Below are positions 3,495-64,000 of a DNA stretch of 64,000 nt, piece after piece. The DNA is taken from the NCBI GenBank assembly GCA_020632555.1, contig JACKFI010000001.1, positions 1,750 to 65,749 on the forward strand. Direction: 5' to 3'. The notes under the pieces are model-generated. The model was not told where the DNA came from and made no database searches. It saw nothing but the letters and a program-made list of their open reading frames with translations. The position numbers and the translations under genes are program-made. Origin of the DNA: Candidatus Omnitrophota bacterium (lineage in GTDB: Bacteria > Omnitrophota > Gorgyraeia > Zapsychrales > JANLHA01). Position 1 is the first letter of the stretch, and each line of letters opens with the position of its first letter.

Positions 3495-3806
3495 TTATCC
3501 CCTTGGGGCGTTCGTTAATTCTAATTTCTTTTTGCGCGGCCAACTTTTTATTTCACATTCCCGTTTAAGAGCTTGACTGCGTCCGCGCGCCTTTTCCCAA
3601 TACACAATTTGCTTAACCCCAAACGTCCGTGTGAATTTTCCGCCATTGCCGCTTTGATGCTGCTTAAATCTTCGTTCCAAATCACCCGTAATGCCCGTGT
3701 ACAAATCCCCATTGCCACATTCTAAAACATAAACACACCACGCCAATTTTTTCTTAGCTGGCTTTTTCTTGGCCGGCTTGTTCTTTTGGGCAGGTTTACT
3801 TTTCAT
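3495..3806 (-). CDS. GIY-YIG domain protein with a lysine-rich N-terminal tail
   Basis: YVYVLECGNGDLYTGITGDLERRFKQH is a GIY-YIG (UPF0213-like) motif, preceded by KPAKKKPAKKK. Confidence 0.75.
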   Translation of the reverse strand: MKSKPAQKNKPAKKKPAKKKLAWCVYVLECGNGDLYTGITGDLERRFKQHQSGNGGKFTRTFGVKQIVYWEKARGRSQALKRECEIKSWPRKKKLELTNAPRG

Positions 3807-4131
3807 TGAGAAACAACAGCAGAATAATCAAATGCACCTTACAAAATCTTAATTTGCGCACAAAACGCTCAGCATGACTGAGCCTGCCAATTTTCAAAGC
3901 AGTCAAACAGGCATTAAACATATACATACTGCCCAGCCAGTACCGTGTTCTACAAATCCTTAAAATTATCTCAGCGATCACGGTACTGTGTACTATGTTT
4001 CCTCTAAAGCCTATCTCAGAAAAACATAGTGCCAGGGCTGCTTCGCACGGAGTGCTCAGCACTCCCTCGGACATTTCGTCCTCGGTCGCGAACTATTGCT
4101 TCGCAATAGTTCGTCACATTCTGTTGAACAT

Positions 4132-4170
4132 GTATACATTTAAAAGGCCATCGGCCTTTTAAATGTATAC
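4132..4170 (-). terminator. Perfect 18-bp hairpin immediately 3' of tRNA-Gln
   Basis: GTATACATTTAAAAGGCC-atc-GGCCTTTTAAATGTATAC abuts the tRNA 3' end. There is no clear U-tract after it, so terminator function is inferred only. Confidence 0.4.
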
Positions 4171-4241
4171 TGCCCAGCCAGGGCTCGAACCTGGAAAACG
4201 AGATCCAAATTCTCGTGTGTTACCAATTACACCACCGGGCA
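4171..4241 (-). tRNA. tRNA-Gln (anticodon UUG)
   Basis: The reverse complement folds by hand into a 71-nt cloverleaf: acceptor TGCCCGG/CTGGGCA, D stem GTGT/ACAC, anticodon stem CGAGA/TCTCG with loop ATTTGGA, T arm CCAGG-TTCGAGC-CCTGG. CCA is not encoded. G at position 37 is slightly unusual. Confidence 0.8.
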
Positions 4242-4273: not shown

Positions 4274-4356
4274 AGTTGACTTGAAAATTCTTTTTAAGCG
4301 AATAGCGCCATAGAGGCGCCAAACAATTGAGCCATAAAAGGATTTTCAAGTCAACT
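4274..4356 (-). repeat. X element copy 1: conserved 36-nt core inside a locus-specific 15-bp stem
   Basis: Arms AGTTGACTTGAAAAT (4274..4288) and ATTTTCAAGTCAACT (4342..4356) are perfectly complementary. On the minus strand the core reads GGCTCAATTGTTTGGCGCCTCTATGGCGCTATTCGC, identical to copy 2. Confidence 0.85.
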
Positions 4357-9116: not shown

Positions 9117-9317
9117 AAAATTTTATCCCAAATTTTGCATTACAACACAGTGCACGACGATAAGTTGCTCACAAAAAAGTGAAATGCAAAATTTGCCTTC
9201 GGTTGCGGATTCCCGCAAGGATTAACCCCGCACGTCTCGTTTTTGTCGAGACATGCGGCCCTTTGGGCGAGTTTTGCTTGGCCTCGCAAAGGCGAGACTA
9301 ATGCAAAATCCGGGTTT
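9117..9317 (-). repeat. Y element copy 1 (hairpin repeat) carrying a nested 117-nt insertion
   Basis: It is the reverse complement of 36148..36229 except for extra sequence between two copies of AATGCAAAAT (9183..9192 and 9300..9309). It abuts the stop codon of the TlpA-like gene. Confidence 0.8.
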
Positions 9318-10175: not shown

Positions 10176-10280
10176 GTTTTATCCTTCCTAAGAATTTACC
10201 CTATCCGCCCAATGACCAATTTGACCCGTGGATTCCCGCTTACGCGGGAATGACAGAAAGAAATACTACAACCCACAATC

Positions 10281-10349
10281 CAGAGTCTAACCCCTATCCC
10301 CCAACCACTAACCCCAACGTCTAGCGTCTAGCTTCCCACCCCTAATCCC
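10281..10349. repeat. W repeat copy (CTAACCCC/TAGTCCC-type low-complexity element)
   Basis: CAGAGTCTAACCCCTATCCCCCAACCACTAACCCCAACGTCTAGCGTCTAGC... is related, in reverse complement, to 44509..44546 and 44770..44817. It overlaps the 3' end of the pgeF-like ORF. Confidence 0.7.
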
Positions 10350-11060
10350 TGTTTCCATCATCATCATCGACAAATGCCGACCAGATTGCTCTTTATCCCG
10401 TCGATATGAAAAAAATCCTTTGCCGCAAACCGTGCACGAAGCATTATCAAAAATATTCGCTGGTTGTACACCCAAGCTAAGCAACTGATTTTTATTGACC
10501 AGCGGCAAATCCAGATACCGTTTATTTCCCATAACCAAAACTTCGCCCGGAAAAGTTGTCGCAAATTCTGCCCCAACCTCGTAACAACAAACCCCAATCG
10601 CCGGCCCAAAAGCCACTCTCAAGTCGACCGCACAACTGCCATAATTCTGCTTCAAAGCCGCAATTGCCTGCTTAACAATCTTCTGAGCGCTGCTCTGCCA
10701 TCCAGCGTGCACTAAACCAATAGATTCTTTCTGCGGATCATATAAAAAAACCGGCAAACAATCCGCCGTTCGCACCGAAAGAACAACTCCCGGGACATTA
10801 GTCACAACACCATCTGCCTGTGGAATCAAACCCTCCTGTTGAGGGATATCTCCGGCACTAATCGTTAAAATCTTATTGCCATGCACCTGACGAATAGTAA
10901 AAATCTTGTCTGCATCAATTTGATATTCGTGCCGTAAAAATTTTTTTTGCTCTGCAGAAAGGCCCAGCGCTTGCGGCGGCAAAACAAAATCTGTGGTCGC
11001 ATCGGTAAAAATAGCCTTCACCTGATTGGGAAAGAAATTATCAAATCCATCAAGATTCAC
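10308..11060 (-). CDS. pgeF: YfiH/PgeF (DUF152) purine nucleoside phosphorylase / laccase-domain protein
   Basis: Family motifs TADCLPV, LVHAGW and CTVCG..FFSYRRD. GTG start in the ORF track. The last ~15 aa are encoded by the W repeat. Confidence 0.85.
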   Translation of the reverse strand: MNLDGFDNFFPNQVKAIFTDATTDFVLPPQALGLSAEQKKFLRHEYQIDADKIFTIRQVHGNKILTISAGDIPQQEGLIPQADGVVTNVPGVVLSVRTADCLPVFLYDPQKESIGLVHAGWQSSAQKIVKQAIAALKQNYGSCAVDLRVAFGPAIGVCCYEVGAEFATTFPGEVLVMGNKRYLDLPLVNKNQLLSLGVQPANIFDNASCTVCGKGFFSYRRDKEQSGRHLSMMMMETGIRGGKLDARRWG

Positions 11061-12207: not shown

Positions 12208-12257
12208 AAAAACACCCTTTCTATTATTCTAGCAAGGAGCTACAGCAAGAGAACAAC

Positions 12258-12336
12258 GAGTTGCATATTGAGTTTTTCGGCTCAATTGTTTGGCGCCTCT
12301 ATGGCGCTATTCGCCTAAAAACTCAATATGCAACTC
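12258..12336 (+). repeat. X element copy 2: conserved core inside a perfect 20-bp locus-specific stem
   Basis: GAGTTGCATATTGAGTTTTT, core CGGCTCAATTGTTTGGCGCCTCTATGGCGCTATTCGCC, then AAAAACTCAATATGCAACTC. It lies 5 nt from the dinB stop. Confidence 0.9.
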
Positions 12337-12341
12337 GCCAC

Positions 12342-14720: not shown

Positions 14721-16667
14721 TTACTTACTAATCCGTCCCCGTTCTTCAGCCAATTGCTTAATGGTCGCCTCAATCTCCCGCTGACGCTGCGCAATCCATT
14801 TGAGCCGCTGGCCATATTCTTTGAGCATATCTGGGTCTTTGCCGTAAGCATTAGAAAGAACGCGCGCTTTGACATAACTTTCGGACTCGATCTCTTTGTT
14901 CTCAATTTCCAAGGCCTTGATTTCCTTTTTAATATCCGCAAGCCGCTTTAAAGCTTGATTATGCTGCGCCCGCGCCTCCTGCATTTTAGAATTCTCGGCG
15001 GCAAAAGCCCGGCGTTTGTCCTCCTTGACTTTCAATTCTTGTTCACGCGCCACGCGCTGACTCTCCTGGCCCAACGTTTCCCCGCTGGCCTTTTTATCGA
15101 GATAATAATCCAGGCCCCCTGCATAAATTTTAATGCGGCCCTGGTCCACCTCAATAATATAATCCGCGATTTGCTGAACAAAAAAAAGATCATGACTGAT
15201 AAAAACCAACGTTCCCTGATATTTCTGAAAACATTCGGTCAAAGCTTCAACGCCATCAATATCCAAATGCGTCGTCGGCTCATCCAATAAAACAAAGTTG
15301 GGTGGATTCAATAAAAGCTTGGCCAAAATCAAGCGGCTCTTTTCACCGCCGGAAAGAATTTTGACATGTTTAAAAACATCATCCCCGCGAAAATTAAAAA
15401 TACTCAACAGCGTCCGCATCGTCACCGCCGGAACACTCTTGGATGACGCGGTGGCCAATTCCTCTAAAGCCGTATTATTCGGATTCAAAACATCCAATCG
15501 TGTCTGCGAAAAATAACCGCGCGTGACATTAAATCCCAATTTCACCTGCCCCTCATCAGGCGAAATGATGTCCGCCAACATTTTTAACAATGTGGATTTA
15601 CCGGCGCCATTAGGCCCAATCAAACAAATTTTCTGTCCCTTAATAATTTCCAAATCCAGGTTTTTATAAACTTGTTTTTCCCCATAAGCTTTACTCAAGC
15701 CTTGCGCGGTGGCCACCACATATCCGCTTTCTTGAGTTGCCGGAAACTCAAAATCACGAATACTGCGTCGCTCTTGCGGCAAGTCCACTTGCTGTTCTTC
15801 AATCTTTTCCAACATTTTGCGCTTATTGCGAACAGCCGCCGCGCGATTGGGCTGGGCATGAAATCTCTGCGCGAACTTCTCCAGCTGATCTTTACGTTGC
15901 TCTAAAACCTTTTGCTGTTTTTCCAAGGATTTATTCATCAAACTCTTTTGTTCTTCATACGCTTGATAATTCCCCTTGATTTTAGTCATCTGCCCATTTT
16001 CCAAAACAATCGTATAATTGGTCACATCATTAAGAAAAATCTTATCGTGCGAAATAATAATAAAAGTTCCCGGGTAACTGGCGAGAAATCCTTTTAACCA
16101 CAATGTGGCATGCAAATCCAAATAATTGGTCGGCTCATCGAGGAGAATAATATCATATGAATACAAAAGCAACTTCGCCAGCAATGTTCGCATCTGCCAA
16201 CCGCCGCTCAAAGTATTAACCGGTTTATGAAACTCTTCGGTTTTGAATCCCAAACCCGTCAAAATACGCTCGGCTTTATTCTCTAGTTCATAAATCCCGG
16301 CGGCTTCCAATTCTTCCAAAATATCGCCATAGCGCACACTGTCAGCCTTATTGGCATCTTCCAACTCATGCTTTTCCTGTAACAATCTTTTAATGCGCGC
16401 ATCACCTGCCGTCACTTCATCCATAACAGTCTGCTTGGAAGAAAAATGAGCTTCTTGCGCCAAATGGCCGATATTCAAATTCTTCTGCATTTGCACACTG
16501 CCGCCGGTTGATTCCATTTGTCCGCGAATAATCGAAAACAAAGTCGACTTTCCCGAACCATTGGGACCTGTCAAACCAATTTTCTCACCGGCAAAAATGC
16601 TCAAATTCACATCTTTAAACAATGTGCGCCCGGTAAAATTCTTTGATAATCCATTAATTGTAATCAT
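14721..16667 (-). CDS. ABC-F family ATPase (two ABC domains, no TM domain)
   Basis: Walker A GPNGSGKST and GPNGAGKST, signatures LSGGWQ and LSGGEK, and a charged coiled-coil C-terminal extension. 648 aa. Confidence 0.9.
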   Translation of the reverse strand: MITINGLSKNFTGRTLFKDVNLSIFAGEKIGLTGPNGSGKSTLFSIIRGQMESTGGSVQMQKNLNIGHLAQEAHFSSKQTVMDEVTAGDARIKRLLQEKHELEDANKADSVRYGDILEELEAAGIYELENKAERILTGLGFKTEEFHKPVNTLSGGWQMRTLLAKLLLYSYDIILLDEPTNYLDLHATLWLKGFLASYPGTFIIISHDKIFLNDVTNYTIVLENGQMTKIKGNYQAYEEQKSLMNKSLEKQQKVLEQRKDQLEKFAQRFHAQPNRAAAVRNKRKMLEKIEEQQVDLPQERRSIRDFEFPATQESGYVVATAQGLSKAYGEKQVYKNLDLEIIKGQKICLIGPNGAGKSTLLKMLADIISPDEGQVKLGFNVTRGYFSQTRLDVLNPNNTALEELATASSKSVPAVTMRTLLSIFNFRGDDVFKHVKILSGGEKSRLILAKLLLNPPNFVLLDEPTTHLDIDGVEALTECFQKYQGTLVFISHDLFFVQQIADYIIEVDQGRIKIYAGGLDYYLDKKASGETLGQESQRVAREQELKVKEDKRRAFAAENSKMQEARAQHNQALKRLADIKKEIKALEIENKEIESESYVKARVLSNAYGKDPDMLKEYGQRLKWIAQRQREIEATIKQLAEERGRISK

Positions 16668-16692: not shown

Positions 16693-16768
16693 TGTCATTG
16701 CGAAGCCGTCAGGCCGAAGCAATCTTATCTTAAGATTGCCGCGTCGCCTTTGGCTCCTCGCAATGACA
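16693..16768. repeat. Z element copy 1 (76-nt foldback: TGTCATTGCGA...TCGCAATGACA)
   Basis: Terminal inverted repeats plus an inner hairpin GCAATCTT-atct-TAAGATTGC. Intergenic. Overlapping ORF-track ORFs on both strands are artefacts of the repeat. Confidence 0.85.
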
Positions 16769-16883: not shown

Positions 16884-17618
16884 CTAAACACTCTGCTTTA
16901 TTTTTAAGTCCCGGATTTCCCTAGCCGTCAAAACCCGACATTTACCCGTCGCCAAATCCCCCAAAGACAATGACCCTTGTCGGATGCGCTTTAAAAATGT
17001 GACATAATGCCCAACTTGCGCAAGCATCAAACGAATTTGCCGTTTGCGACCTTCATGAATTGTAATCAAAAACTCACACCCTTTTTCCAAAATCTTAAGC
17101 GCGGTGATTTTTGCCGGCGCTGTTTTTTCTCCGTCAACGATAACGCCAATTTCCAAGTTCTTTTGATCCTGCGGACTTAATCGTTTTTGAATCCGCACCA
17201 CATAAGTTTTGTCCACATCATAGCGCGGATGAGTCAACTGATTGGCCAAATCCCCGTCATTGGTCATAATCAACAAACCTTCGGTATTCTTGTCCAACCG
17301 GCCGACCGGATTCAAATGACGCAAACCCGTCGGTAAAAGGTCTAGAACTGTTTTTTGCGCGAAGCGATCTTCCCGCGTGGTCACATAACCAACTGGTTTA
17401 TTGAGCATCACATACTCATACGCTTTTTTCTGAACAATTTTGCCATCAAAGATAATACGATCATGAGCCGCGTTAACCAGCGTGGACGGCTCGCGGACAA
17501 TCTGTCCATTAACACTGACAAAACCAAGTTGTATTGCTTCCATCGCTTTACGGCGAGAACAAATGCCTTGATGAGCCAAATACACATTAAGCCGCTGAGA
17601 TTCTGTTGTTTCTTGCAT
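16884..17618 (-). CDS. Pseudouridine synthase, RsuA/RluB family, with S4 domain
   Basis: S4-like N-terminus (RLNVYLAHQGICSRRKA) and catalytic GRLD motif (PVGRLDKNTEGLL). Confidence 0.85.
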   Translation of the reverse strand: MQETTESQRLNVYLAHQGICSRRKAMEAIQLGFVSVNGQIVREPSTLVNAAHDRIIFDGKIVQKKAYEYVMLNKPVGYVTTREDRFAQKTVLDLLPTGLRHLNPVGRLDKNTEGLLIMTNDGDLANQLTHPRYDVDKTYVVRIQKRLSPQDQKNLEIGVIVDGEKTAPAKITALKILEKGCEFLITIHEGRKRQIRLMLAQVGHYVTFLKRIRQGSLSLGDLATGKCRVLTAREIRDLKIKQSV

Positions 17619-36147: not shown

Positions 36148-36229
36148 AAACCCGGATTTTGCATTTCACTTTTTTGTGAGCAACGTATCATCGCGCTCTG
36201 TGCTGTAATGCAAAATTTGGGATAAAAAT
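36148..36229 (+). repeat. Y element copy 2 (uninterrupted hairpin repeat)
   Basis: CCCGGATTTTGCATT (36151..36165) pairs with AATGCAAAATTTGGG (36207..36221): 13 Watson-Crick pairs plus 2 G-T pairs on the + strand only. Confidence 0.85.
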
Positions 36230-40205: not shown

Positions 40206-43200
40206 TTAACTTGCGAGATTGGCTGCCAACTCGGCTTCTTTGGCAGGTTCCTTAGGGGCTTGGCCTAAAAAGATTGGCAAAGTCTGCGCGTTAATAGGAA
40301 CGATATTAATAATAATCGGAAACAAACCTTGAATATTAATTTGTTCTAAATTCTGTTGCGGTAAAGGCAGCGGAACACCTTTGCCGTCACGTTTGATTTG
40401 CAAATTCATATTGGTCGGGTCAAAGTCAATACCCCCGACAGGTGCGGAAGCAACCGTTTCATTAGCCGCAACATCCGCAGCTGCAAACTCTGGGAATCGC
40501 TCATCCAAAGCCTCTCGCGCCCATTTCAAAATACGAGAATAATGAAAACCCTCTAATTGATCATTATTTCTCAATGGCAATGGCCTATCACTCCCCTTGA
40601 CCTTGACGGATGTTGCCCACACTTGCAAATCTTTTGGTGATTCTATCGCCCCAAAATAACTTCTGAATAATTCTCTAAGGGCATCTTCTGCCGTCGGGTA
40701 TAGCTCTCCGTATTTAACATAATTAGGCAAATTAACAAAATGGCGCAATAAGCCCAGCGACACATAAAGACCTGCCGTACTAATCCCATATTGACGTACA
40801 AGATCTATATCTTTTTCAGTTGTCTTCTCCGTTGCCAACAAATCAAGATAATCATTTAAATTACGAATTTCCTGATTGTCCGACTCCTGGCCAGTCAGCA
40901 AAGTTAAATCCTGAATATTAATTGTTGCTTTAAACAATCGTTTATTAAGCTTTACAGCTTCAGCCTGACCTCTGGTTCTCATTGCCATTAACATCAACTC
41001 TTTTACTGATAAAACCGTTCCTGGCTGTACCATTCCTAAATTGCTTAACACACGGGATAAACTACGGCGTGATACCTCAAAACGAGGATCATTAGCCCAT
41101 ATTTGATCAACCTTAGCCCATCGCTGAGCAGATAAAACACGTTCAAAACTAATCACAGGATTAAACAGCTGCCCATCTGGATGTTTCATATCCTTTGTGG
41201 AAACAAAATTCCCCTCTCCATCAGGAACTTCAAAAACTCTTACATATCCCAAAAACTGATTAAATAATTGTTCACTATTACGCAAAGCCTCTGCAGACGA
41301 TTCAGCGGCTTGAGCTTCTAGCTCTGACAATAATCCTACCCATAATTGAGGTTCGCCGGGTTCATCGCGAAAATAATACGGAATCTCTTGAAATGTTCCG
41401 CCAATATTTTGTCCTGACCCCAAAGTTGTTAAAAAAGTCCCATCTTCTAAAGGAAAATATACTCGCCGCCCATTGGCAACCTTAAACTTTGCTTTCTCAT
41501 AATAGCGATCTGTCACAGCTATAACTATTTCTTCTTTTAACTCTGAATGAGCGACCACCTCAAGCGCTGTTTTAGTGGACCCAACACGAAAACTAAGATA
41601 TTTTTGCATTAATTCCAGAATCGTCATATTACCAATTTTTTGCTGAACCAAATCCTTATTTGACTCTAAAACTTGCAACTGTCCGACACTGCTGCCTGGC
41701 AAACGTTGCATAAATACTGGCCGTAAAGAACGATCGTTTAATAAGGCATATTTAACTTGAGCAGTAAACAAGTTTAATAACGGCTGATAAAGCTCAAGCC
41801 CACCTGGCTCATTAATACCCGGAAATGTCTCTGTTTGCTTAACGATATAAGCTGTCCATGCCGCCTCCAACTCTACTGGGTTTAAATCCTCGGCTAATTT
41901 CTGCCCCAAAGCGCTGGAGGCGCTTTGATCACCAAAAGTTCCTAACATCCTCCACAAAGCTAAATCTTGAATTGATCCCACAACAGCATCCAACGTATTA
42001 TCTAACGGCTGATGATCCACAAAATAATCCCTGCCCCGATTTATAAATTCTTGCACAACAGTATTAGTATTTGCTAGCCCTCCATCAAGACCCAAATGAA
42101 TACCCACACGCTTCTCATCTTGAGATACAACAGCCAGCAATTCACCATTGGCATTTTTATTAAGATAAAATTGCACCTGGGCTTGCCCCCATTGCTCGGC
42201 TTCTTTTCCAAACTGATTATACTCAGTGAGCAATCGGTTCAACTCGTCTCCCCGATAAACACTCCCTGCTTGATTACGAGCAGTATTATTAGCCCCTCCA
42301 TTCCGTGCTTTTTGTAAAGCATCTTTACGGTCTAATTCCTCAAACTCCTGATAATAAGCCGCCATTCGCTGAATACCATCTTCTGCAAGATCAATCCACT
42401 GGGCGTCGATTGGCAATTGCTGTCTTGCTGTTTGCATCGCACTCTTACGATCTGTTTCTCCTAGAGCCATTAACTGGTCAACAGCTTGATCAAGTCCATG
42501 CCGCGATTGAACTATTTGCTTTTTCTGTAACGGCTCTACAGCCTTATCAACTAATCCCTCATAATACATTTCAACAAGTTCAATATTCTGGCCAGCCGCG
42601 TCTTTTCCGAGAACTGCTTGAACAACAGCCACTTGCGATGCGTCTGCAGGCAAGCCATTTACTGCCCGTAATTCTTCTGCCGCTTGTAAACGCATTTGTT
42701 CGATCAAGTTATCAATGGTGCTGGAGGCGACAGCTTGAGATTGCTGATATTTAGCCATTAACTCTTCTGGAGAAGCTGTAACAAAATTCCCTTCTAAAAT
42801 TGCAAAACCGATTAGTGTGCTTTCATGGCTAAACAGCTTAACTACCGTAAAATCATTTTTGCTGCTATCACGATATAATCTTGCCTCATATTGATTTTTA
42901 TCATCAATGTCGCCAGATTTAATATTATTGCTCCCATTAACACGAAACAAATTCTTTTCTGCAATGGCTCGATTGAGCGCATCTAAAGCGCTGGAAGCGG
43001 CGAATTGCTTTAAAGTCTTCTCTAACAATGGCTTTATGATTTCTCCGGGGATTCCATTCGTAAGATCCAGTGAAGCTAAAATGCCAGACATTTCCTCTTT
43101 CGTAACTCTAAAGTTAGGCTTTATAGCATCAATGGTACTTTGATCCAATGTATCTTGCATAATATCCTCAATGGACCCACCTGGTTGTGCCCACACTTGC

Positions 43201-45323
43201 AAATACATTTCATAGAGGGCCTGCTGCAAAACACTCTGAGCATAAGATCTATCTTGACCACTGAGACTGTTTAAATCCGGTTTTGTTTTTGCTAATTCTG
43301 CAAACAATGCATCCGCTTGGTCAATAACATTATCCCTCGCACTGGATGTTTCTGTTTTAAACTGTGACGAAATTGTTTCTCGTAAATCATTATTGTGCGC
43401 AGCCATTTGTGAAATTTGATCTTCAACAATCTCTTGAGTAAACTTACTCAGCGCATCCCAAATCTCTCCGGCACCAAATTCTAAATACATTTGGGGTGTC
43501 CACTCTGCCAGCAAGGTTAAATTGCTTATATCCGGTCTATATTTATCTAAAAGATTACGGTGCTGATTTATAAATTCTGCCTGTTGCTCTAAAGTCAATA
43601 CGCGTTGGGCTGCTTGAACAACTTCCAATGGAGCTTTAGCATTCCATTGTTCTGGATTTTTAATACGAGAAGCTTCTGGTTCAACTGCCAAGACATCATA
43701 ATATTGCGCGAATTTATCGTATCCATCAGTTAACATTTGCTTTATGTGCTCTATGCCAGCCTCATTGGTTTTATTAACATAATTTGCCAATGTATCAAAA
43801 TACTCCATTATGCTCTTCTGCTCCTGAGCACTACTATGCTTGTACAATAATGATTGCTCGACTTTCATCTTCATATATTCAACACTAATATCTGACAAAC
43901 CATCCCTCAAATTGTACCAATACGCCTCAAATCGTTGATAAACCTTTTCAATCCGGGATTCTTGCAAACGATCAACGGCATTCTCAAAATCCTCAACATT
44001 TTTTTCAAAGTTTTTAACCGTGCTGGAAGAGACGGCAGCAAGTTGATCTGCTTCAGCATTGGGTTCCCCCAACTGAATTGTGGCAGCGTGAATTCCAGAG
44101 CTGGCGGATAATGTTCTTTCTGTTTGTAGTGGAGACCCAGCGATAATTCTTAATACTCCTGCAGTCTGACCTAACATTTCAATCCCGCCTGAGAAATACT
44201 TGCGCGGAATCAGGTCACCAGCTGCGTCAACTTCTTCTTTAATCAAATTGTAAGCACCTTTCTTAAAGGCGGCTAAGTACTGTTCATAAATGTGCTGCTT
44301 CATCTCTTTATCGTCGGTTTCAACACCAGCGACTTTACCTTGATCAGCATACACTTTGCCCAGCAAACTTTCTTTCAAAGCTTTTTTGTACCATGCGGCT
44401 AAAATGACGGAATTATAAATCTGACGCACATCGGCGAAATCTTTGCTTTCGTTGACGGCTTTGTCGATGGCAGGCAAAATGGTTTGGCGGAAGATATTAG
44501 TTGAATTATTAGGGACTAGGGGTTGGGAGTTGGGGGTTAGAGACTGACCGGTGGATGTGTCATTGCGAGCGACCAAAGGAAGCGAAGCAATCTCTGCTTT
44601 CGAGATTGCCGCGTCGCCCTGCGGGCTTCTCGCAATGACAGTGCTTTTTGTGACTGTTTCATAGTCCTCTGCGAGCATAACCTGCAACCGTTTTTCGCCA
44701 ACCAAAACAATGCCATTGCTTTCTAACACTTCGGCTTTGACAGGCATGATCCAAACTTTGTTCAACTGGTTAGGGACTAGAGGCTGGGGGTTAGGGGTTA
44801 GAGAGCGTCTAGCGTCCACTGTCTGCGCAGCATTGACCTGATCCCAATATTTTTTTCCCAAATCTGTTTCGGGATTGGTTAAGGAAGCTGCCATTTGTTT
44901 CAGCACATAATCCTGCTCCAACATGGTCTTGCCCATGGTCGTTTGGCCTAAGACGTCGGGAATAATGCGATCTTTTTCATATGGGGAAAGATTCACCCAA
45001 ACTTCTTTATCGGGAATGGTTAAAGCGGCTAGGAAATATTTGACTAACTTTTCGGTTTCACTTTTGAGTTCTTCACCTGAAAGTTTGGATTGACCTTGAT
45101 CAACAATAAAATCAAATAAAAGCGGGTTTTCAGGATGAACTTTAAGCCCCAGCAAAATAGGCGGTTGGAACCCCGTCGTCAAGGTCACCGGACTGTTGAG
45201 AACTGGTAAGATCTGCGCACCGGCTGGAGCAACAATCAAGGAAGAAATAAAACTCACCAAAATCACACTGCACGTCAATTTTTTATAAAATCTTAAAGAC
45301 CAACGACAAAAAAGACCCTTCAT
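40206..45323 (-). CDS. Very large secreted protein P2 (1705 aa), unknown family; paralog of P1
   Basis: Uninterrupted ORF. AAGGGGGAG RBS before ATG 45323 and a signal-like N-terminus (VILVSFISSLIVAPAGAQ). Shares N- and C-terminal modules with P1. Carries in-frame copies of the Z and W repeats. Confidence 0.85.
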   Translation of the reverse strand: MKGLFCRWSLRFYKKLTCSVILVSFISSLIVAPAGAQILPVLNSPVTLTTGFQPPILLGLKVHPENPLLFDFIVDQGQSKLSGEELKSETEKLVKYFLAALTIPDKEVWVNLSPYEKDRIIPDVLGQTTMGKTMLEQDYVLKQMAASLTNPETDLGKKYWDQVNAAQTVDARRSLTPNPQPLVPNQLNKVWIMPVKAEVLESNGIVLVGEKRLQVMLAEDYETVTKSTVIARSPQGDAAISKAEIASLPLVARNDTSTGQSLTPNSQPLVPNNSTNIFRQTILPAIDKAVNESKDFADVRQIYNSVILAAWYKKALKESLLGKVYADQGKVAGVETDDKEMKQHIYEQYLAAFKKGAYNLIKEEVDAAGDLIPRKYFSGGIEMLGQTAGVLRIIAGSPLQTERTLSASSGIHAATIQLGEPNAEADQLAAVSSSTVKNFEKNVEDFENAVDRLQESRIEKVYQRFEAYWYNLRDGLSDISVEYMKMKVEQSLLYKHSSAQEQKSIMEYFDTLANYVNKTNEAGIEHIKQMLTDGYDKFAQYYDVLAVEPEASRIKNPEQWNAKAPLEVVQAAQRVLTLEQQAEFINQHRNLLDKYRPDISNLTLLAEWTPQMYLEFGAGEIWDALSKFTQEIVEDQISQMAAHNNDLRETISSQFKTETSSARDNVIDQADALFAELAKTKPDLNSLSGQDRSYAQSVLQQALYEMYLQVWAQPGGSIEDIMQDTLDQSTIDAIKPNFRVTKEEMSGILASLDLTNGIPGEIIKPLLEKTLKQFAASSALDALNRAIAEKNLFRVNGSNNIKSGDIDDKNQYEARLYRDSSKNDFTVVKLFSHESTLIGFAILEGNFVTASPEELMAKYQQSQAVASSTIDNLIEQMRLQAAEELRAVNGLPADASQVAVVQAVLGKDAAGQNIELVEMYYEGLVDKAVEPLQKKQIVQSRHGLDQAVDQLMALGETDRKSAMQTARQQLPIDAQWIDLAEDGIQRMAAYYQEFEELDRKDALQKARNGGANNTARNQAGSVYRGDELNRLLTEYNQFGKEAEQWGQAQVQFYLNKNANGELLAVVSQDEKRVGIHLGLDGGLANTNTVVQEFINRGRDYFVDHQPLDNTLDAVVGSIQDLALWRMLGTFGDQSASSALGQKLAEDLNPVELEAAWTAYIVKQTETFPGINEPGGLELYQPLLNLFTAQVKYALLNDRSLRPVFMQRLPGSSVGQLQVLESNKDLVQQKIGNMTILELMQKYLSFRVGSTKTALEVVAHSELKEEIVIAVTDRYYEKAKFKVANGRRVYFPLEDGTFLTTLGSGQNIGGTFQEIPYYFRDEPGEPQLWVGLLSELEAQAAESSAEALRNSEQLFNQFLGYVRVFEVPDGEGNFVSTKDMKHPDGQLFNPVISFERVLSAQRWAKVDQIWANDPRFEVSRRSLSRVLSNLGMVQPGTVLSVKELMLMAMRTRGQAEAVKLNKRLFKATINIQDLTLLTGQESDNQEIRNLNDYLDLLATEKTTEKDIDLVRQYGISTAGLYVSLGLLRHFVNLPNYVKYGELYPTAEDALRELFRSYFGAIESPKDLQVWATSVKVKGSDRPLPLRNNDQLEGFHYSRILKWAREALDERFPEFAAADVAANETVASAPVGGIDFDPTNMNLQIKRDGKGVPLPLPQQNLEQINIQGLFPIIINIVPINAQTLPIFLGQAPKEPAKEAELAANLAS
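44509..44546. repeat. W repeat copy inside the P2 coding sequence (encodes SLTPNSQPLVPN)
   Basis: TTAGGGACTAGGGGTTGGGAGTTGGGGGTTAGAGACTG, a direct repeat of 44770..44807 located 261 nt (87 codons) away. Confidence 0.8.
44558..44640. repeat. Z element copy 2, in frame inside P2 (encodes TVIARSPQGDAAISKAEIASLPLVARND)
   Basis: It has the same termini (TGTCATTGCGA / TCGCAATGACA) and inner GCAATCT...AGATTGC hairpin as the intergenic copies. The frame check (45323-44639 divisible by 3) confirms the reading frame continues through it. Confidence 0.85.
44770..44817. repeat. W repeat copy inside the P2 coding sequence (encodes SLTPNPQPLVPN)
   Basis: TTAGGGACTAGAGGCTGGGGGTTAGGGGTTAGAGAGCGTCTAGCGTCC. 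The CGTCTAGCGTC tail also occurs at 10319..10332. Confidence 0.8.
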
Positions 45324-45986: not shown

Positions 45987-46284
45987 CCCCGCGCGGGGAG
46001 AGTTAGGGTGGGGCAGTTAAATTTCACCCTCCCCTAACCCCTCCCATCAAGGGAGGGGAATTGATACTGTGGCGCTTGCAGCACCACAGTATTTCGCCTC
46101 GCGCGTGGAACTTATACTGTGGTGGCTACGCCAAAAACCAATAGGGAATTCATACTGTGGCGCTTGCAGCACCACAGTATTTCGCCTCGCGTAAAGAAGC
46201 AAAACTAGTGGAACTTATACTGTGGTGGCTGCGCCGCCACAGTATTCACTCGCAGGTAAGGAAGCAAAATCAAGACCTGCGAGT
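45987..46284. repeat. Dense array of palindromes/hairpins (REP/BIME-like), not CRISPR
   Basis: CCCCGCGCGGGG (45987..45998); CCCCTCCC-atcaa-GGGAGGGG (46038..46058); ATACTGTGGCGCTTGCAGCACCACAGTAT at 46064..46092 and 46152..46180; ATACTGTGGTGGCT half-copy at 46114..46127; full ATACTGTGGTGGCTGCGCCGCCACAGTAT at 46217..46245; ACTCGCAGG...CCTGCGAGT at 46248..46284. Confidence 0.85.
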
Positions 46285-55103: not shown

Positions 55104-56354
55104 CTAACCTGCGTCAATTCCATTTCCAGTTATATTTTTCCGCCATTGTTTTCCGCCCAGAACACGGGCAACCAACATGCTGGCGACATTGTCCCCGACC
55201 GCATTGACCATCGTTGCTGGAGGGTCAACAATGGTGCCGACCATCGCCAACACCGGCAAAGCCTCAATGGGAAAGCCATACAAAGTCACAATCAATAATT
55301 CCCCAATAAAACCGCCGCCGGGAATGCCGCTCATCACCGTCCCGCTTAAAAGCGCGATGCCCATCGCGGTTAAAATAACACCCGGCGAAGAAAAATCCAT
55401 ATGAAAAATCCCAAACAAAAGGCTGATTTTAACAATCGCTGCCAAACATGATCCTTCCATATGAATCGTGGCCCCCAGCGGAATCACCACTTCACTAATG
55501 TCTTGCGGGACACCGTTTTTATTGGCCGCCTCCAAATTCACCGGAATGGTCGCGACACTACTACCCGTCGCCCACGCGGTCAAAGACGTTGAAATCATAT
55601 TTTGCCAAAAAGTTTTAACAGCTTTTAACCCGCCGGCAAAGAAAACGTAAAAGCTAAACGCGAAAATAAAATACAAAAACGCTACCGGATAGTACAGCAG
55701 TGCTACCCGAAGATATGATCCCATTAGTTGCGGACCAAAGACGCCAACCAAATACGCGAAATACGCGCCAAGCCCGACGGGCGCGTAAAACATAATCAAT
55801 TTGATCACCTTGGTCATCACCACATTGCCCGACACCAAGAACTTCGCAAAAGGCCGGCCGCCTTCACCAGCAAACAAAGTGGCCAATCCCATCAACGCAG
55901 AAAAAAGAATCAACGCCAGCATGTTCTTCTTTGAAAAGATTTCGACAAAATCTGTCACCGTCACCGCCTTAACAATTTGCTGAGCCAAACTATAAGACTC
56001 AACTGTCAGCGGTGCGGGCAAAGCAATATTGATCCCTTGTGCCAAAGGAAATATTTTAACTGCGACAATCATCACCACGGCCGCGATCATGCCTGTCAAA
56101 ACAAAAATCAGCATCATCGTCCCGAGGATTTTTGCTAAACGCTTGGCGTCCTGCATCCCAGCAATGGCAGAGGATATTGAAAAGAATACCAAGGGAACAA
56201 CTGCGGTAAAAAGCAAATTGAGAAAAATGTCACCCAACGGTTTAAACATCACCGCGTCCTGCTTAAAAAGCATTCCTGAAAAAGAACCAAAAAGAATTGA
56301 AACGAATAAGATCAGCGAGAAACCGTAATTTTTTAAGAACTTATTACTCTGCAT
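55104..56354 (-). CDS. Dicarboxylate/amino acid:cation symporter (DAACS family)
   Basis: Polytopic protein with family-like reentrant-loop regions (TGSSVATIPV, PLGATIHMEGS). The track start is TTG; ATG at 56354. Confidence 0.8.
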   Translation of the reverse strand: MQSNKFLKNYGFSLILFVSILFGSFSGMLFKQDAVMFKPLGDIFLNLLFTAVVPLVFFSISSAIAGMQDAKRLAKILGTMMLIFVLTGMIAAVVMIVAVKIFPLAQGINIALPAPLTVESYSLAQQIVKAVTVTDFVEIFSKKNMLALILFSALMGLATLFAGEGGRPFAKFLVSGNVVMTKVIKLIMFYAPVGLGAYFAYLVGVFGPQLMGSYLRVALLYYPVAFLYFIFAFSFYVFFAGGLKAVKTFWQNMISTSLTAWATGSSVATIPVNLEAANKNGVPQDISEVVIPLGATIHMEGSCLAAIVKISLLFGIFHMDFSSPGVILTAMGIALLSGTVMSGIPGGGFIGELLIVTLYGFPIEALPVLAMVGTIVDPPATMVNAVGDNVASMLVARVLGGKQWRKNITGNGIDAG

Positions 56355-56420
56355 CAACTCCCCTTATGTTAACCATACGTTATTGATCCCCGATAAAAGC
56401 CTTCGAGGATGACAATTTTT

Positions 56421-56586
56421 TGTCATTGCGAACGCAGTGAGTCCCTCCTCCGGGACGAACGAAGCGAAGGCCATCAAGGCCCAGCGGAGTGCCGAAAACA
56501 GGAGTTTTTCGGTCGAAGTGAAGCAATCTCATATCAATAAGATTGCCGCGTCGGCCGGTACTATTGATTGCCTCCTCGCAATGACA
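56421..56586. repeat. Z element copy 3 (expanded, 166 nt)
   Basis: Same termini and inner GAAGCAATCT...AGATTGCCGCGTCG as copies 1 and 2, with about 90 nt of extra internal sequence. The ORF-track ORF 56380..56589 is an artefact of the repeat. Confidence 0.85.
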
Positions 56587-56725: not shown

Positions 56726-57526
56726 CTACTTATTCTCACAACGCCAGTGCCAAGGTTCATAAGTTATGCCTACCGGCGCGTCTTTGGGATACGATAAAAC
56801 AAAACCAAAACGTTTGGCATGCTTTTTCATCCACAAGAATTCCGGCAAGGCATCAAACTCCGACATATTCTCTTCGCCGTTAATGCCGTCTTCATTAATA
56901 AAATCAATCGCTTGAAAAGCCGGCGCGCCGTGTTCGCTATAACCGGGCAAAGCCACAAATTTGACTGTTTCGCGTATCGAATATTTATGATTCTGCAAAT
57001 AAAAAACAAACAAATACAATTGATACGCGCTGGAGCGATAACCGGATTCGATCAAAAGTTTTTTACCCAAATCTTTTTGCATCGCAATCATCATGGCTTG
57101 ATACTTGGCATAAACATCCCGCGGCAAAAACTGCGGCGCCAATTCCCGACGATCGCGCTGAGTACCTTCTTTTTTATGGTCCCGCACTTTGACTTTTTGC
57201 CCGACGATTAAAACCAAATCCTCTTTACCAGTCGCTATCCCGCGAAAAGGAATTTTAACTCCCAACTGTTTAGCATCCAGTTGTTGAAAACTTTTTAAAA
57301 ATGTCTGTTCTTCTTTATTTAAAGGGGAATACAATTCATCAAACGTCAGCTTGGCCAAATCTTTGGTTTTGTCTCGCGCAAGAATAAACGGCTCGAGTTT
57401 TTTGATTAAACCTTTAACTTTTTTAATATCTTGTTCTGAAAGTTTATCCACATTCAATGCCGCAAACACCGGCCGTACACACAGTACAATCATTAACCCC
57501 GACAAAAATAACTTTTTAAAATGCAT
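56726..57526 (-). CDS. VanY-like D-alanyl-D-alanine carboxypeptidase (peptidase M15B)
   Basis: SGYRS, PGYSEHG and EPWHWR metal-site motifs, with an N-terminal signal peptide. Confidence 0.8.
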   Translation of the reverse strand: MHFKKLFLSGLMIVLCVRPVFAALNVDKLSEQDIKKVKGLIKKLEPFILARDKTKDLAKLTFDELYSPLNKEEQTFLKSFQQLDAKQLGVKIPFRGIATGKEDLVLIVGQKVKVRDHKKEGTQRDRRELAPQFLPRDVYAKYQAMMIAMQKDLGKKLLIESGYRSSAYQLYLFVFYLQNHKYSIRETVKFVALPGYSEHGAPAFQAIDFINEDGINGEENMSEFDALPEFLWMKKHAKRFGFVLSYPKDAPVGITYEPWHWRCENK

Positions 57527-58406: not shown

Positions 58407-58491
58407 AGCTGATCCAGCAAGCCCTTTTTCGGCTCAATTGTTTGGCGCCTCTATGGCGCAATTCGCCTTAAAAGGACTTGCTGAATCAGCT
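58407..58491 (+). repeat. X element copy 3: conserved core inside a 22-23 bp locus-specific stem
   Basis: AGCTGATCCAGCAAGCCCTTTTT, core CGGCTCAATTGTTTGGCGCCTCTATGGCGCAATTCGCC, then TTAAAAGGACTTGCTGAATCAGCT. The two arm mismatches are C-A on the + strand, which is G-U on the - strand. Confidence 0.9.
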
Positions 58492-62866: not shown

Positions 62867-63046
62867 TTATCTTTTGGAAAGAACAGCCTCGGGCTGGACA
62901 TTCAACTGTCCGAGAATTGGCAAGGTTTGGGCATTGACGGGTAGAATGTTAAGAATAACAGGATACAAACCATTGATATGGATGTTTTCTATGTCCTGTT
63001 GCAGTAAAGGCAAAGGAACACCACGGCCGTCGCGCTTGATTTGCAA
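62867..63046 (-). pseudogene. Displaced 3' fragment (59 codons plus stop) of a P3-type gene
   Basis: 62894..63046 matches 63711..63863 at 151 of 153 nt by my hand alignment. It encodes LQIKRDGRGVPLPLLQQDIENIHINGLYPVILNILPVNAQTLPILGQLNVQPEAVLSKR. There is no start codon, and an in-frame TAG lies 10 codons upstream. Confidence 0.8.
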
Positions 63047-63048
63047 TT

Positions 63049-63192
63049 TTATCCACGCGAAACAACTGTTTGTCTAGCAGGGTACTTATCTCGCAATTTC
63101 TTTAAAAAAGTCTTGCGATCTTTCAAAAACTCACGACTTAATTTTTGACGGGCTTTACGCTGCAAGACTACGGCATCAAATTTCTTTTTCAT
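63049..63192 (-). CDS. 47-aa basic ORF overlapping the 3' end of the PIN gene (possible partner/antitoxin)
   Basis: Below the ORF-track cut-off. My translation is MKKKFDAVVLQRKARQKLSREFLKDRKTFLKKLRDKYPARQTVVSRG. The ATG at 63192 overlaps the PIN ORF by 17 nt. Confidence 0.4.
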   Translation of the reverse strand: MKKKFDAVVLQRKARQKLSREFLKDRKTFLKKLRDKYPARQTVVSRG

Positions 63193-63683: not shown

Positions 63684-64000
63684 TTACCCTTTTGACAACA
63701 CGGCTTCTGGCTGGACATTCAACTGTCCGAGAATTGGCAAGGTTTGGGCATTGACGGGCAGAATGTTGAGAATAACAGGATACAAACCATTGATATGGAT
63801 GTTTTCTATGTCCTGTTGCAGTAAAGGCAAAGGAACACCACGGCCGTCGCGCTTGATTTGCAAATTGAGTTTGGACGGGTCAAAATCAATACCCCCCTTG
63901 GTGAAGTTGCTAGCTGCAGGAGAAGAAACACTGATATTATCGACGGTTGACCCTTCCACAACCGCGTTGGAGGACGCGGATGCGAGTAAGACCTCAAAGA
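63684..64000 (-). CDS. C-terminal end of a third large P1/P2-family protein (P3); 5' part outside the window
   Basis: The frame stays open upstream of the ORF-track GTG at 63959, all the way to position 64000. The C-terminus GGIDFDPSKLNLQIKRDGRGVPLPLLQQDIENIHINGLYPVILNILPVNAQTLPILG closely parallels the P2 C-terminus. Confidence 0.8.
   Translation of the reverse strand, partial: FEVLLASASSNAVVEGSTVDNISVSSPAASNFTKGGIDFDPSKLNLQIKRDGRGVPLPLLQQDIENIHINGLYPVILNILPVNAQTLPILGQLNVQPEAVLSKG

Follow-up and report, generated by a model that had tools for sequence, protein, structure and literature searches.

A widespread palindromic repeat lies in frame within a loop of a predicted secreted protein of Candidatus Omnitrophota

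Several families of short palindromic repeats resemble the element described here, repeat Z, one copy of which lies in frame inside the gene for a large protein (P2) of a Candidatus Omnitrophota bacterium. CGTC-tagged repetitive extragenic palindromes (REPs) have a CGTC or TGTC head and an 8-9 bp stem starting with AT, and frequently form dimers; they occur in five phyla, have no dedicated transposase, have some copies inside genes, and include by assignment the Neisseria repeat dRS3 and the Rickettsia repeats RPE-4 and RPE-6 (Di Nocera et al. 2013, PMC3733652). In Neisseria, SsnA, a small single-domain enzyme of the GIY-YIG nuclease type with homologues across phyla, cuts the repeat NTS, CGTCATTCCCGCGMAVGCGGGAATCYRG, in its single-stranded DNA form, and its gene typically has the repeat on either side in the arrangement NTS-ssnA-NTS (Chenal et al. 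2025, PMC11893778). Rickettsia palindromic elements (RPEs) are palindromic repeats that lie in frame in protein genes and are translated as extra peptide segments, their insertion being predicted to be compatible with the three-dimensional conformation and function of the protein (Ogata et al. 2000, 2002, as summarised in PMC10969869). REPs, ERIC, BOX and the Coxiella element QMITE1 have also been found inside genes (PMC10969869, PMC3733652). Here we compare these systems with Z in a 64,000-nt stretch of contig JACKFI010000001.1 (the window, to which all coordinates refer). We consider it probable that Z is a widespread REP-like hairpin doublet, linked to small GIY-YIG genes, that was acquired in a tolerant loop of P2.

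Z follows the pattern TGTCATTGCGA...GAAGCAATCT...AGATTGCCGCG...TCGCAATGACA and occurs three times in the window, always in the same orientation (+ strand) and with pairwise identities of 88-96% over aligned positions. Z1 (16693..16768, 76 nt) is intergenic, 26 nt upstream of the start of the open reading frame (ORF) 14721..16667(-) and downstream of ORF 16884..17618(-). Z2 (44558..44640, 83 nt) lies inside P2, a 1705-aa ORF at 40206..45323(-), where its minus-strand translation (nt 44642-44559) is TVIARSPQGDAAISKAEIASLPLVARND, residues 228-255. Z3 (56421..56586, 166 nt) is intergenic, between ORFs 55104..56357(-) and 56726..57526(-), and has an extra insert of ~85 nt in its left arm. The genes flanking Z1, and those flanking Z3, are co-directional. 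Six nucleotides from Z3 is a degenerate CGTC-type REP at 56383..56414(-), TGTC-ATCCTCGA-aggctttta-TCGGGGAT-CAA (TGTCATCCTCGA...TCGGGGATCAA), and small repeats are clustered around the two. A sequence-only reading of this DNA had reported the two intergenic copies at these positions, the third copy of 83 nt translated inside P2, the 63 nt that separate ATTGCG from CGCAAT within it, and its location between blocks conserved in a paralogue; all of this is borne out.

The layout common to the three copies is TGTCATTGCGA(R) - variable - GAAGCAATCT - loop - AGATTGCCGCGTCG - variable - CTCGCAATGACA, and Z2 can be drawn as an 83-nt nested hairpin, TGTC-ATTGCGAG...GAAGCAATCTC-loop-GAGATTGCCGCG...CTCGCAAT-GACA. 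A composite pattern, GTCATTGCGA-N-GCAATCT-N-TCGCAATGAC, matches Z1 and Z2 on both strands, with no match in 100 dinucleotide-preserving shuffles of the window. Both copies are predicted to fold as long hairpins on either strand (-40 to -45 kcal/mol, z = -3.7 to -7.2).

P2 is probably a large secreted protein of Omnitrophota, with an N-terminal signal/transmembrane helix, a conserved domain of ~400 aa, a variable central part and a C-terminal tail that is again conserved; DNA resembling that encoding the tail recurs at 62916-63079 and 63733-63896. The N-terminal ~400 aa belong to a very large family (673 matches), confined to Candidatus Omnitrophota and variable in its C-terminal parts, which we call the P family. 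A metagenome scan with P2 returned only nine loci, none above 63% identity. Directly downstream of P2 is a 1292-aa paralogue, P1 (36248..40126(-)), which is 39% identical to it over 413 aa. Neither protein matched a Pfam family, and nothing in the PDB resembled the predicted fold of the P2 N-terminal model at E ≤ 0.001. The Z2 peptide sits between two blocks conserved with P1, LKVML.(D/E)DY and ILP..(D/E)..VNE; the corresponding loop of P1 is 28 aa long and lacks Z.

Comparison with relatives indicates how Z came to be there. The locus L125 is syntenic with the window (MlaE, ABC ATPase, MlaD, YggT, YbaB, a 77-aa ORF, GreA, the P2 orthologue, a 457-aa gene, a 176-aa gene and GFO_IDH). Its P2 orthologue, P0121, shows 79% identity over the N-terminal domain, with DNA flanks of ~90% identity, and has an unrelated loop sequence without Z that holds a CCCCCTCTTT...AAAGAGGGGG hairpin instead. 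In the metagenome-assembled genome (MAG) H6753 the orthologue is 83% identical and has Z at the same site as P2, while a second paralogue from this MAG, P0124, has the identical 28-aa peptide in frame. As judged from these sequences, Z in P2 is an acquired insert and not an ancestral part, because the syntenic orthologue and most of the 202 P-family loops extracted (the segment from LKVML to ILPxIEKEVN) lack it. It would have entered the P2 loop before the window organism and H6753 diverged, and either later than the L125 lineage or separately from it, since H6753 has Z at the site and the L125 orthologue does not. Near-identical strains, sought through the GreA gene of the window, were represented only by two 1-kb contigs that both end before the loop. 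P1 is likewise missing from L125, and so appears to be a lineage-specific gain beside P2.

An AlphaFold model of the P2 N-terminal region, based on 112 aligned sequences (pLDDT 76.5, pTM 0.75), predicts residues 232-272 to be coil between helices 218-231 and 273-292. The ten-residue pLDDT means across this coil are 53, 43, 40 and 54, against 80-96 on either side. The Z2 peptide is thus modelled as low-confidence coil and not as folded core; this supports the loop proposed by the sequence-only reading but does not prove it, because low confidence is expected wherever a segment lacks aligned homologues. Z would persist in P2 because its 84 nt make up 28 codons, its VIA...RND frame is free of stops, and the site is a disordered loop that joins two helices.

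Z is not private to the window genome or to Omnitrophota. A scan with the exact 27-base Z core, covering one genome per species, found it unchanged in at least 120 stretches. These are distributed among Gamma-, Alpha- and Deltaproteobacteria, Campylobacterota, Chloroflexota, Patescibacteria, Planctomycetota, Nitrospirota, Omnitrophota, Zixibacteria and Margulisbacteria, Bacteroidota isolates (Pedobacter, Flavobacterium, Mucilaginibacter and Lacinutrix), Clostridia and one Rickettsiales symbiont. Sixty IMG/VR stretches also contain the core, some in several copies. One 18-kb viral contig (L174 / L180, IMG/VR UViG_3300022552_000049) has at least seven Z copies between small co-directional ORFs. 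Many of the phyla with Z lack the P family, so the repeat is independent of that family, as had been claimed, and its copies are not decayed fragments of P-family genes.

Across this range Z measures 57-166 nt and has the consensus YGTC-ATTGCGAG...CTCGCAAT-GACR, the outer stem being the same in every matched copy. Of 139 copies, 126 have T or C as the base before GTCATT (GTCATTGCGA) and 131 have A or G as the mirror base; none of the 139 shows a target-site duplication. The arms are often unlike each other, either can bear an extra hairpin of its own, and single arms are found alone (for example in L130 and L003). An all-against-all comparison of ORFs from 120 loci revealed no transposase or other gene family recurring beside Z in general. 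Rfam contains no family matching Z (whole window at the gathering threshold; four Z-bearing loci at E up to 1). Full-text literature searches with Z DNA strings and Z peptides returned nothing relevant; only a sister-repeat string, GTCATTCCCGC, matched, in the paper describing the Ssn system (PMC11893778). The better-folding strand of Z shows no bias relative to the flanking genes (15 vs 10), which leaves a role at the RNA level unsupported.

In a cross-phylum sample of ~125 elements Z is mostly intergenic, with ~2% of copies within real genes. It is in frame in YchF (L095, a Daviesbacteria MAG), in the glutaminase domain of the GMP synthase GuaA (L016, a gammaproteobacterial MAG) and in PurQ (L080, an Anaerolineales MAG). 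The YchF of L095 also contains a further repeat-like peptide, PSTNSGQAP. The VIA...RND frame is used by two of these three enzyme copies and by most Z-type peptides of the P family; in YchF the reading begins in the SLR frame and finishes as ...PRND. Among the in-frame copies examined, the second open frame (HCE...LAMT) was not found in any real gene, and the third is closed by the TGA of AATGAC, the only stop in the conserved core. This preference for the VIA...RND frame suggests filtering at the protein level, through independent events that are few and uncertain in number. An unbiased census revealed no significant excess of Z lengths divisible by three (49:40:36). Long ORFs crossing Z in four high-GC loci (L059, L076, L048 and L106) were set aside as spurious low-complexity frames.

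Linkage of Z to a nuclease gene was approached from both directions. Starting from Z, ~180 Z-selected loci were screened for the GIY-YIG motif and then inspected, yielding four small ORFs of one type (GYVYILTN..LYVGVTSDL..HK..REKQxK). Z lies within ~250 nt of all four, and on both sides of three. Starting from the protein, a profile built on these four ORFs found at least 7995 homologues, four of which were chosen before their flanking DNA was seen; YGTCATTGCGAG hairpins lie within 50-450 nt in all four loci (Cellulophaga, Xanthomarina, an uncultured lineage and Flavobacterium beibuense). In combination, Z stands beside a ~100-aa single-domain GIY-YIG gene in eight of eight loci, on both sides in four, and the encoded proteins all belong to PF01541. 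A viral scan with the GIY-YIG profile returned a single locus that was already known. In Cellulophaga lytica the Z-flanked small GIY-YIG gene (L198, 1286-1788) separates hsdS from hsdR in a type I restriction-modification operon. Of the Z-linked GIY-YIG homologues, many are on contigs shorter than 1.5 kb, which would fit assemblies broken at flanking repeats.

The only GIY-YIG ORF of the window, 3498..3827(-), encodes a single-domain protein of 110 aa that is 44.6% identical to the Z-flanked GIY-YIG protein of L101. It is a candidate for a nuclease acting in trans, not a demonstrated one. About 260 nt upstream, at 4083-4115, is a hairpin (CGAACTATTGC-TTC-GCAATAGTTCG) with the ATTGC/GCAAT core of Z and without the Z head.

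Among the described systems, Z shares with the CGTC-tagged REPs an unpaired YGTC head, an 8-bp outer stem (ATTGCGAG / CTCGCAAT) that starts with AT, dimers able to form one long hairpin, occurrence in several phyla, the lack of a dedicated transposase and some intragenic copies. It differs in being a heads-out doublet, an arrangement reported to be rare in that group, and, when taken as two units, in having 5-bp ATTGC/GCAAT closing stems and a CTC tail in place of CCA. With the NTS and other Ssn-related motifs (SRMs) of the Ssn system it shares the hairpin, a conserved HGTCWY head, a wide phylogenetic spread and the placing of copies, often on both sides, next to a single-domain GIY-YIG gene of ~100 aa. 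A canonical CGTC-1 / NTS-type REP is also present in the window at 10229..10255(-), TGTC-ATTCCCGC-GTAA-GCGGGAAT-CCA (TGTCATTCCCGCGTAAGCGGGAATCCA).

The likeness to RPEs lies in the in-frame position of Z in P2, YchF, GuaA and PurQ. RPEs, however, are ~100-150 bp long and are elements described from Rickettsia, whereas Z measures 57-166 nt, is found across bacteria and is mostly intergenic. NCBIfam includes RPE models. None of ten Z peptides, in two frames, matched NCBIfam at E up to 10, and none of six matched Pfam. The sequence-only reading had named RPEs as the known precedent, which is a valid comparison, although RPEs are not the sole precedent, given the REPs, ERIC, BOX and QMITE1 copies inside genes. 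The Rickettsia comparison may nevertheless be more than an analogy, because RPE-4 and RPE-6 are placed in the CGTC-tagged superfamily, whose head motif Z has.

Like REPINs, Z is an inverted doublet of a short palindromic unit that forms a long hairpin and makes no target duplication (PMC3337134). REPINs, however, are GTAG-headed, lineage-specific, vertically inherited and paired with a RAYT (Bertels and Rainey; PMC3337134), whereas Z is YGTC-headed, near-identical across phyla and paired with a GIY-YIG gene. No tyrosine transposase gene was found near Z in 120 loci. Integron attC sites have ends of the consensus RYYYAAC / GTTRRRY. This identity was rejected by inspection, as the ends of Z do not fit.

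The P-family loop itself is a general sink for Z and several other repeat types. Its modal length among the 202 proteins is 55 aa, with ordinary-looking sequence and no Z, and ~30% of the loops are longer and packed with small repeats that are translated. At least a dozen family proteins have Z-type peptides (VIA..KQS..EIAS..RND), and truncated half-Z remnants are fused to other repeats in P0131 and P0122. Other loop peptides are VILSAAKDL..PQND, VIPAKAGIH and FPRKRES..MDSRFRGND, and unrelated repeat types include TPSLDKEGEGGVL, SPPLVGGVRGG, TLDAGRWTLEK, VGAYCNTPLQ and SLTPNPQPLVPN. Two of these readings are borne out by DNA. The loop DNA of a relative, L130, contains a heads-out pair of canonical NTS-type CGTC hairpins in frame (TGTCATTCCCGCGAAAGCGGGAATCC ... 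GGATCCCCGCTTTCGCGGGGATGACA), and an earlier loop of the same gene contains a lone Z arm, also in frame. In L001 the peptide SSPNASIGDP is encoded by the hairpin TGTCATCCCCGAATGCTTCTATCGGGGATCCA. P2 has a second repeat of this kind, a G-rich 35-nt sequence (TTAGGGACTAGRGGYTGGGRGTTRGGGGTTAGAGA, C-rich in the coding sense) with three copies in the window, two of which are read in P2 as SLTPN[SP]QPLVPN. The copy at 44509..44543, 15 nt from Z2 on the coding strand, is read as SLTPNSQPLVPN (residues 261-272); that at 44770..44804, in an earlier P2 loop, as SLTPNPQPLVPN (residues 174-185). The third, at 10286-10315, lies at the 3' end of ORF 10308..11060(-), beside the NTS-type hairpin.

We propose that Z, a small non-coding repeat, is built as a heads-out (tail-to-tail) doublet of a REP-like unit with a CGTC/TGTC tag, YGTC-ATTGC-GAG...GAA-GCAAT-CTC. 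Wherever the partner gene is visible, Z flanks a ~100-aa GIY-YIG gene, as NTS flank ssnA. Spread would proceed via single-stranded hairpin intermediates, possibly helped or targeted by an Ssn-like nuclease. One copy would then have entered, or replaced, DNA of the hypervariable P2 linker in the common ancestor with the H6753 MAG lineage, insertions being kept only where the protein tolerates them. By analogy with SsnA, the GIY-YIG protein would cut Z as single-stranded DNA; we infer this, the mode of insertion in P2, and that the Z peptide is a passenger with no function of its own.

Several points weigh against this proposal. The two halves of the outer stem are 50-60 nt apart in Z, compared with a loop of 4-5 nt in CGTC-tagged REPs, and Z is placed with that group, as its published account outlines it, by head, AT-starting 8-bp stem and behaviour rather than by a curated consensus. 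Pfam assigns the Z-linked GIY-YIG proteins to PF01541 only, and their best PDB relative is UPF0213 BH0048. The window has no Z-flanked GIY-YIG gene, with no Z within 700 nt of ORF 3498..3827. The published SRM pattern, HGTCWYN(0-2)YYVSBRHN(0-5)WNVSBRGN(0-2)RNCYNB, matches none of 211 Z copies, and the test is valid because the pattern does find the 10229-10255 element, its sole match in the window, and the NTS-type copies of L130. Since the GIY-YIG linkage is nonetheless present, Z behaves like an Ssn-type motif whose class escapes the published search. Translation of P2 across Z is deduced from the open frame alone. There is also no clean empty site: other repeats occupy the orthologous loop, which leaves the exact junctions undefined, and Z may have arrived by replacing earlier sequence and not by simple insertion. 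Finally, in the closest relative of P2, that of H6753, the called gene is split inside an enlarged Z into two ORFs, P0004 (237 aa) ending in Z and P0126 (1090 aa) starting in Z. Both are known from protein sequences only, and the split may be a real disruption or an effect of assembly or annotation.

A functional role of the loop in diversification is unlikely. Nuclease-targeted hairpins in a coding loop would here give rise to single-strand breaks, to recombination or to gene conversion, and would thereby alter a surface-exposed segment, with a parallel in the NTS repeats that lie beside variable antigen genes in Neisseria and modulate recombination there (PMC11893778). In its favour, the ~30% of loops that are expanded by repeats involve at least three CGTC-type REP families and others, always in the same two loops; the identical Z peptide occurs in two paralogues of one MAG (P0124 and P0126), and the half-Z remnants of P0131 and P0122 are joined to other repeats. 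Random insertion, with survival only in the tolerant disordered loops of a very large family, gives the same pattern, however. Moreover, housekeeping enzymes, for which diversification would be pointless, also have Z in frame, and no Z-linked nuclease gene is present in the window.

There is little reason to regard Z as an ordinary MITE (miniature inverted-repeat transposable element), that is, one derived by deletion from an insertion sequence with a DDE transposase and mobilised by cut-and-paste through 11-bp terminal inverted repeats. Its length and its TG...CA inverted-repeat ends (TGTCATTGCGA / TCGCAATGACA) would suit such an element, but the 139 copies lack target-site duplications, no transposase recurs beside them, single arms stand alone (as in L130 and L003), and the core is conserved across phyla, unlike that of lineage-specific MITEs. 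It is just as doubtful that P2 is a pseudogene or a mis-joined assembly in which Z is not truly translated. The division of the closest relative's gene inside Z (P0004 and P0126) would agree with this, as would the capacity of repeats to mislead assemblers; against it, the frame is open across 1705 codons and the sequence to either side of Z is homologous to the family domain. A repeat of 83 nt is, in addition, short relative to typical sequencing reads. It is scarcely credible that the 28 residues were already in the ancestral P-family domain as a selected part of it and gave rise to the intergenic copies: several members have VIA...KQS...EIAS...RND at the same loop and the P1 loop is faintly similar (IIARNAT), but the peptide is missing from the syntenic orthologue and most members, its segment has pLDDT <55, and Z is abundant, mostly intergenic, in phyla without the family.

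The window contains further repeats that are separate from Z. A hairpin family of ~80 nt with the core TTTTTCGGCTCAATTGTTTGGCGCCTCTATGGCGC occurs at 4274-4356, 12257-12337 and 58423-58479, one copy adjoining the tRNA gene 4170-4241. A 72-nt sequence is present twice in opposite orientation with 93% complementarity, at 9121-9192 and at 36156-36227, the latter just downstream of the P1 stop codon. Direct repeats of ~48 nt, each with an ACTGTGG...CCACAGT hairpin, occupy 46056-46256 between GreA and the 77-aa ORF.

The in-frame palindromic repeat in P2 is real but is an event of a kind already known, and the insert alone is unsurprising because such repeats have been recognised since the Rickettsia work. 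More general is the existence of one near-invariant hairpin common to many phyla and to viral contigs, which is usually annotated away as tiny hypothetical proteins; VIA...KQS...EIAS...RND peptides within conserved proteins are to be read as repeat-derived and not as domain features. Together with the small GIY-YIG gene, Z points to a putative specificity class for a new family of single-stranded DNA nucleases with proposed biotechnological uses. For the Omnitrophota, a single disordered loop that has taken up many repeats is a natural experiment on which repeats, and which frames, survive in genes. We think it improbable that Z is a new and very widespread class of Ssn-type target missed by the published search and that, at the same time, the P-family loops are sites of recombination driven by such hairpins. 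If true, nuclease-targeted hairpins would diversify a surface-exposed segment of a secreted, multi-paralogue Omnitrophota family.

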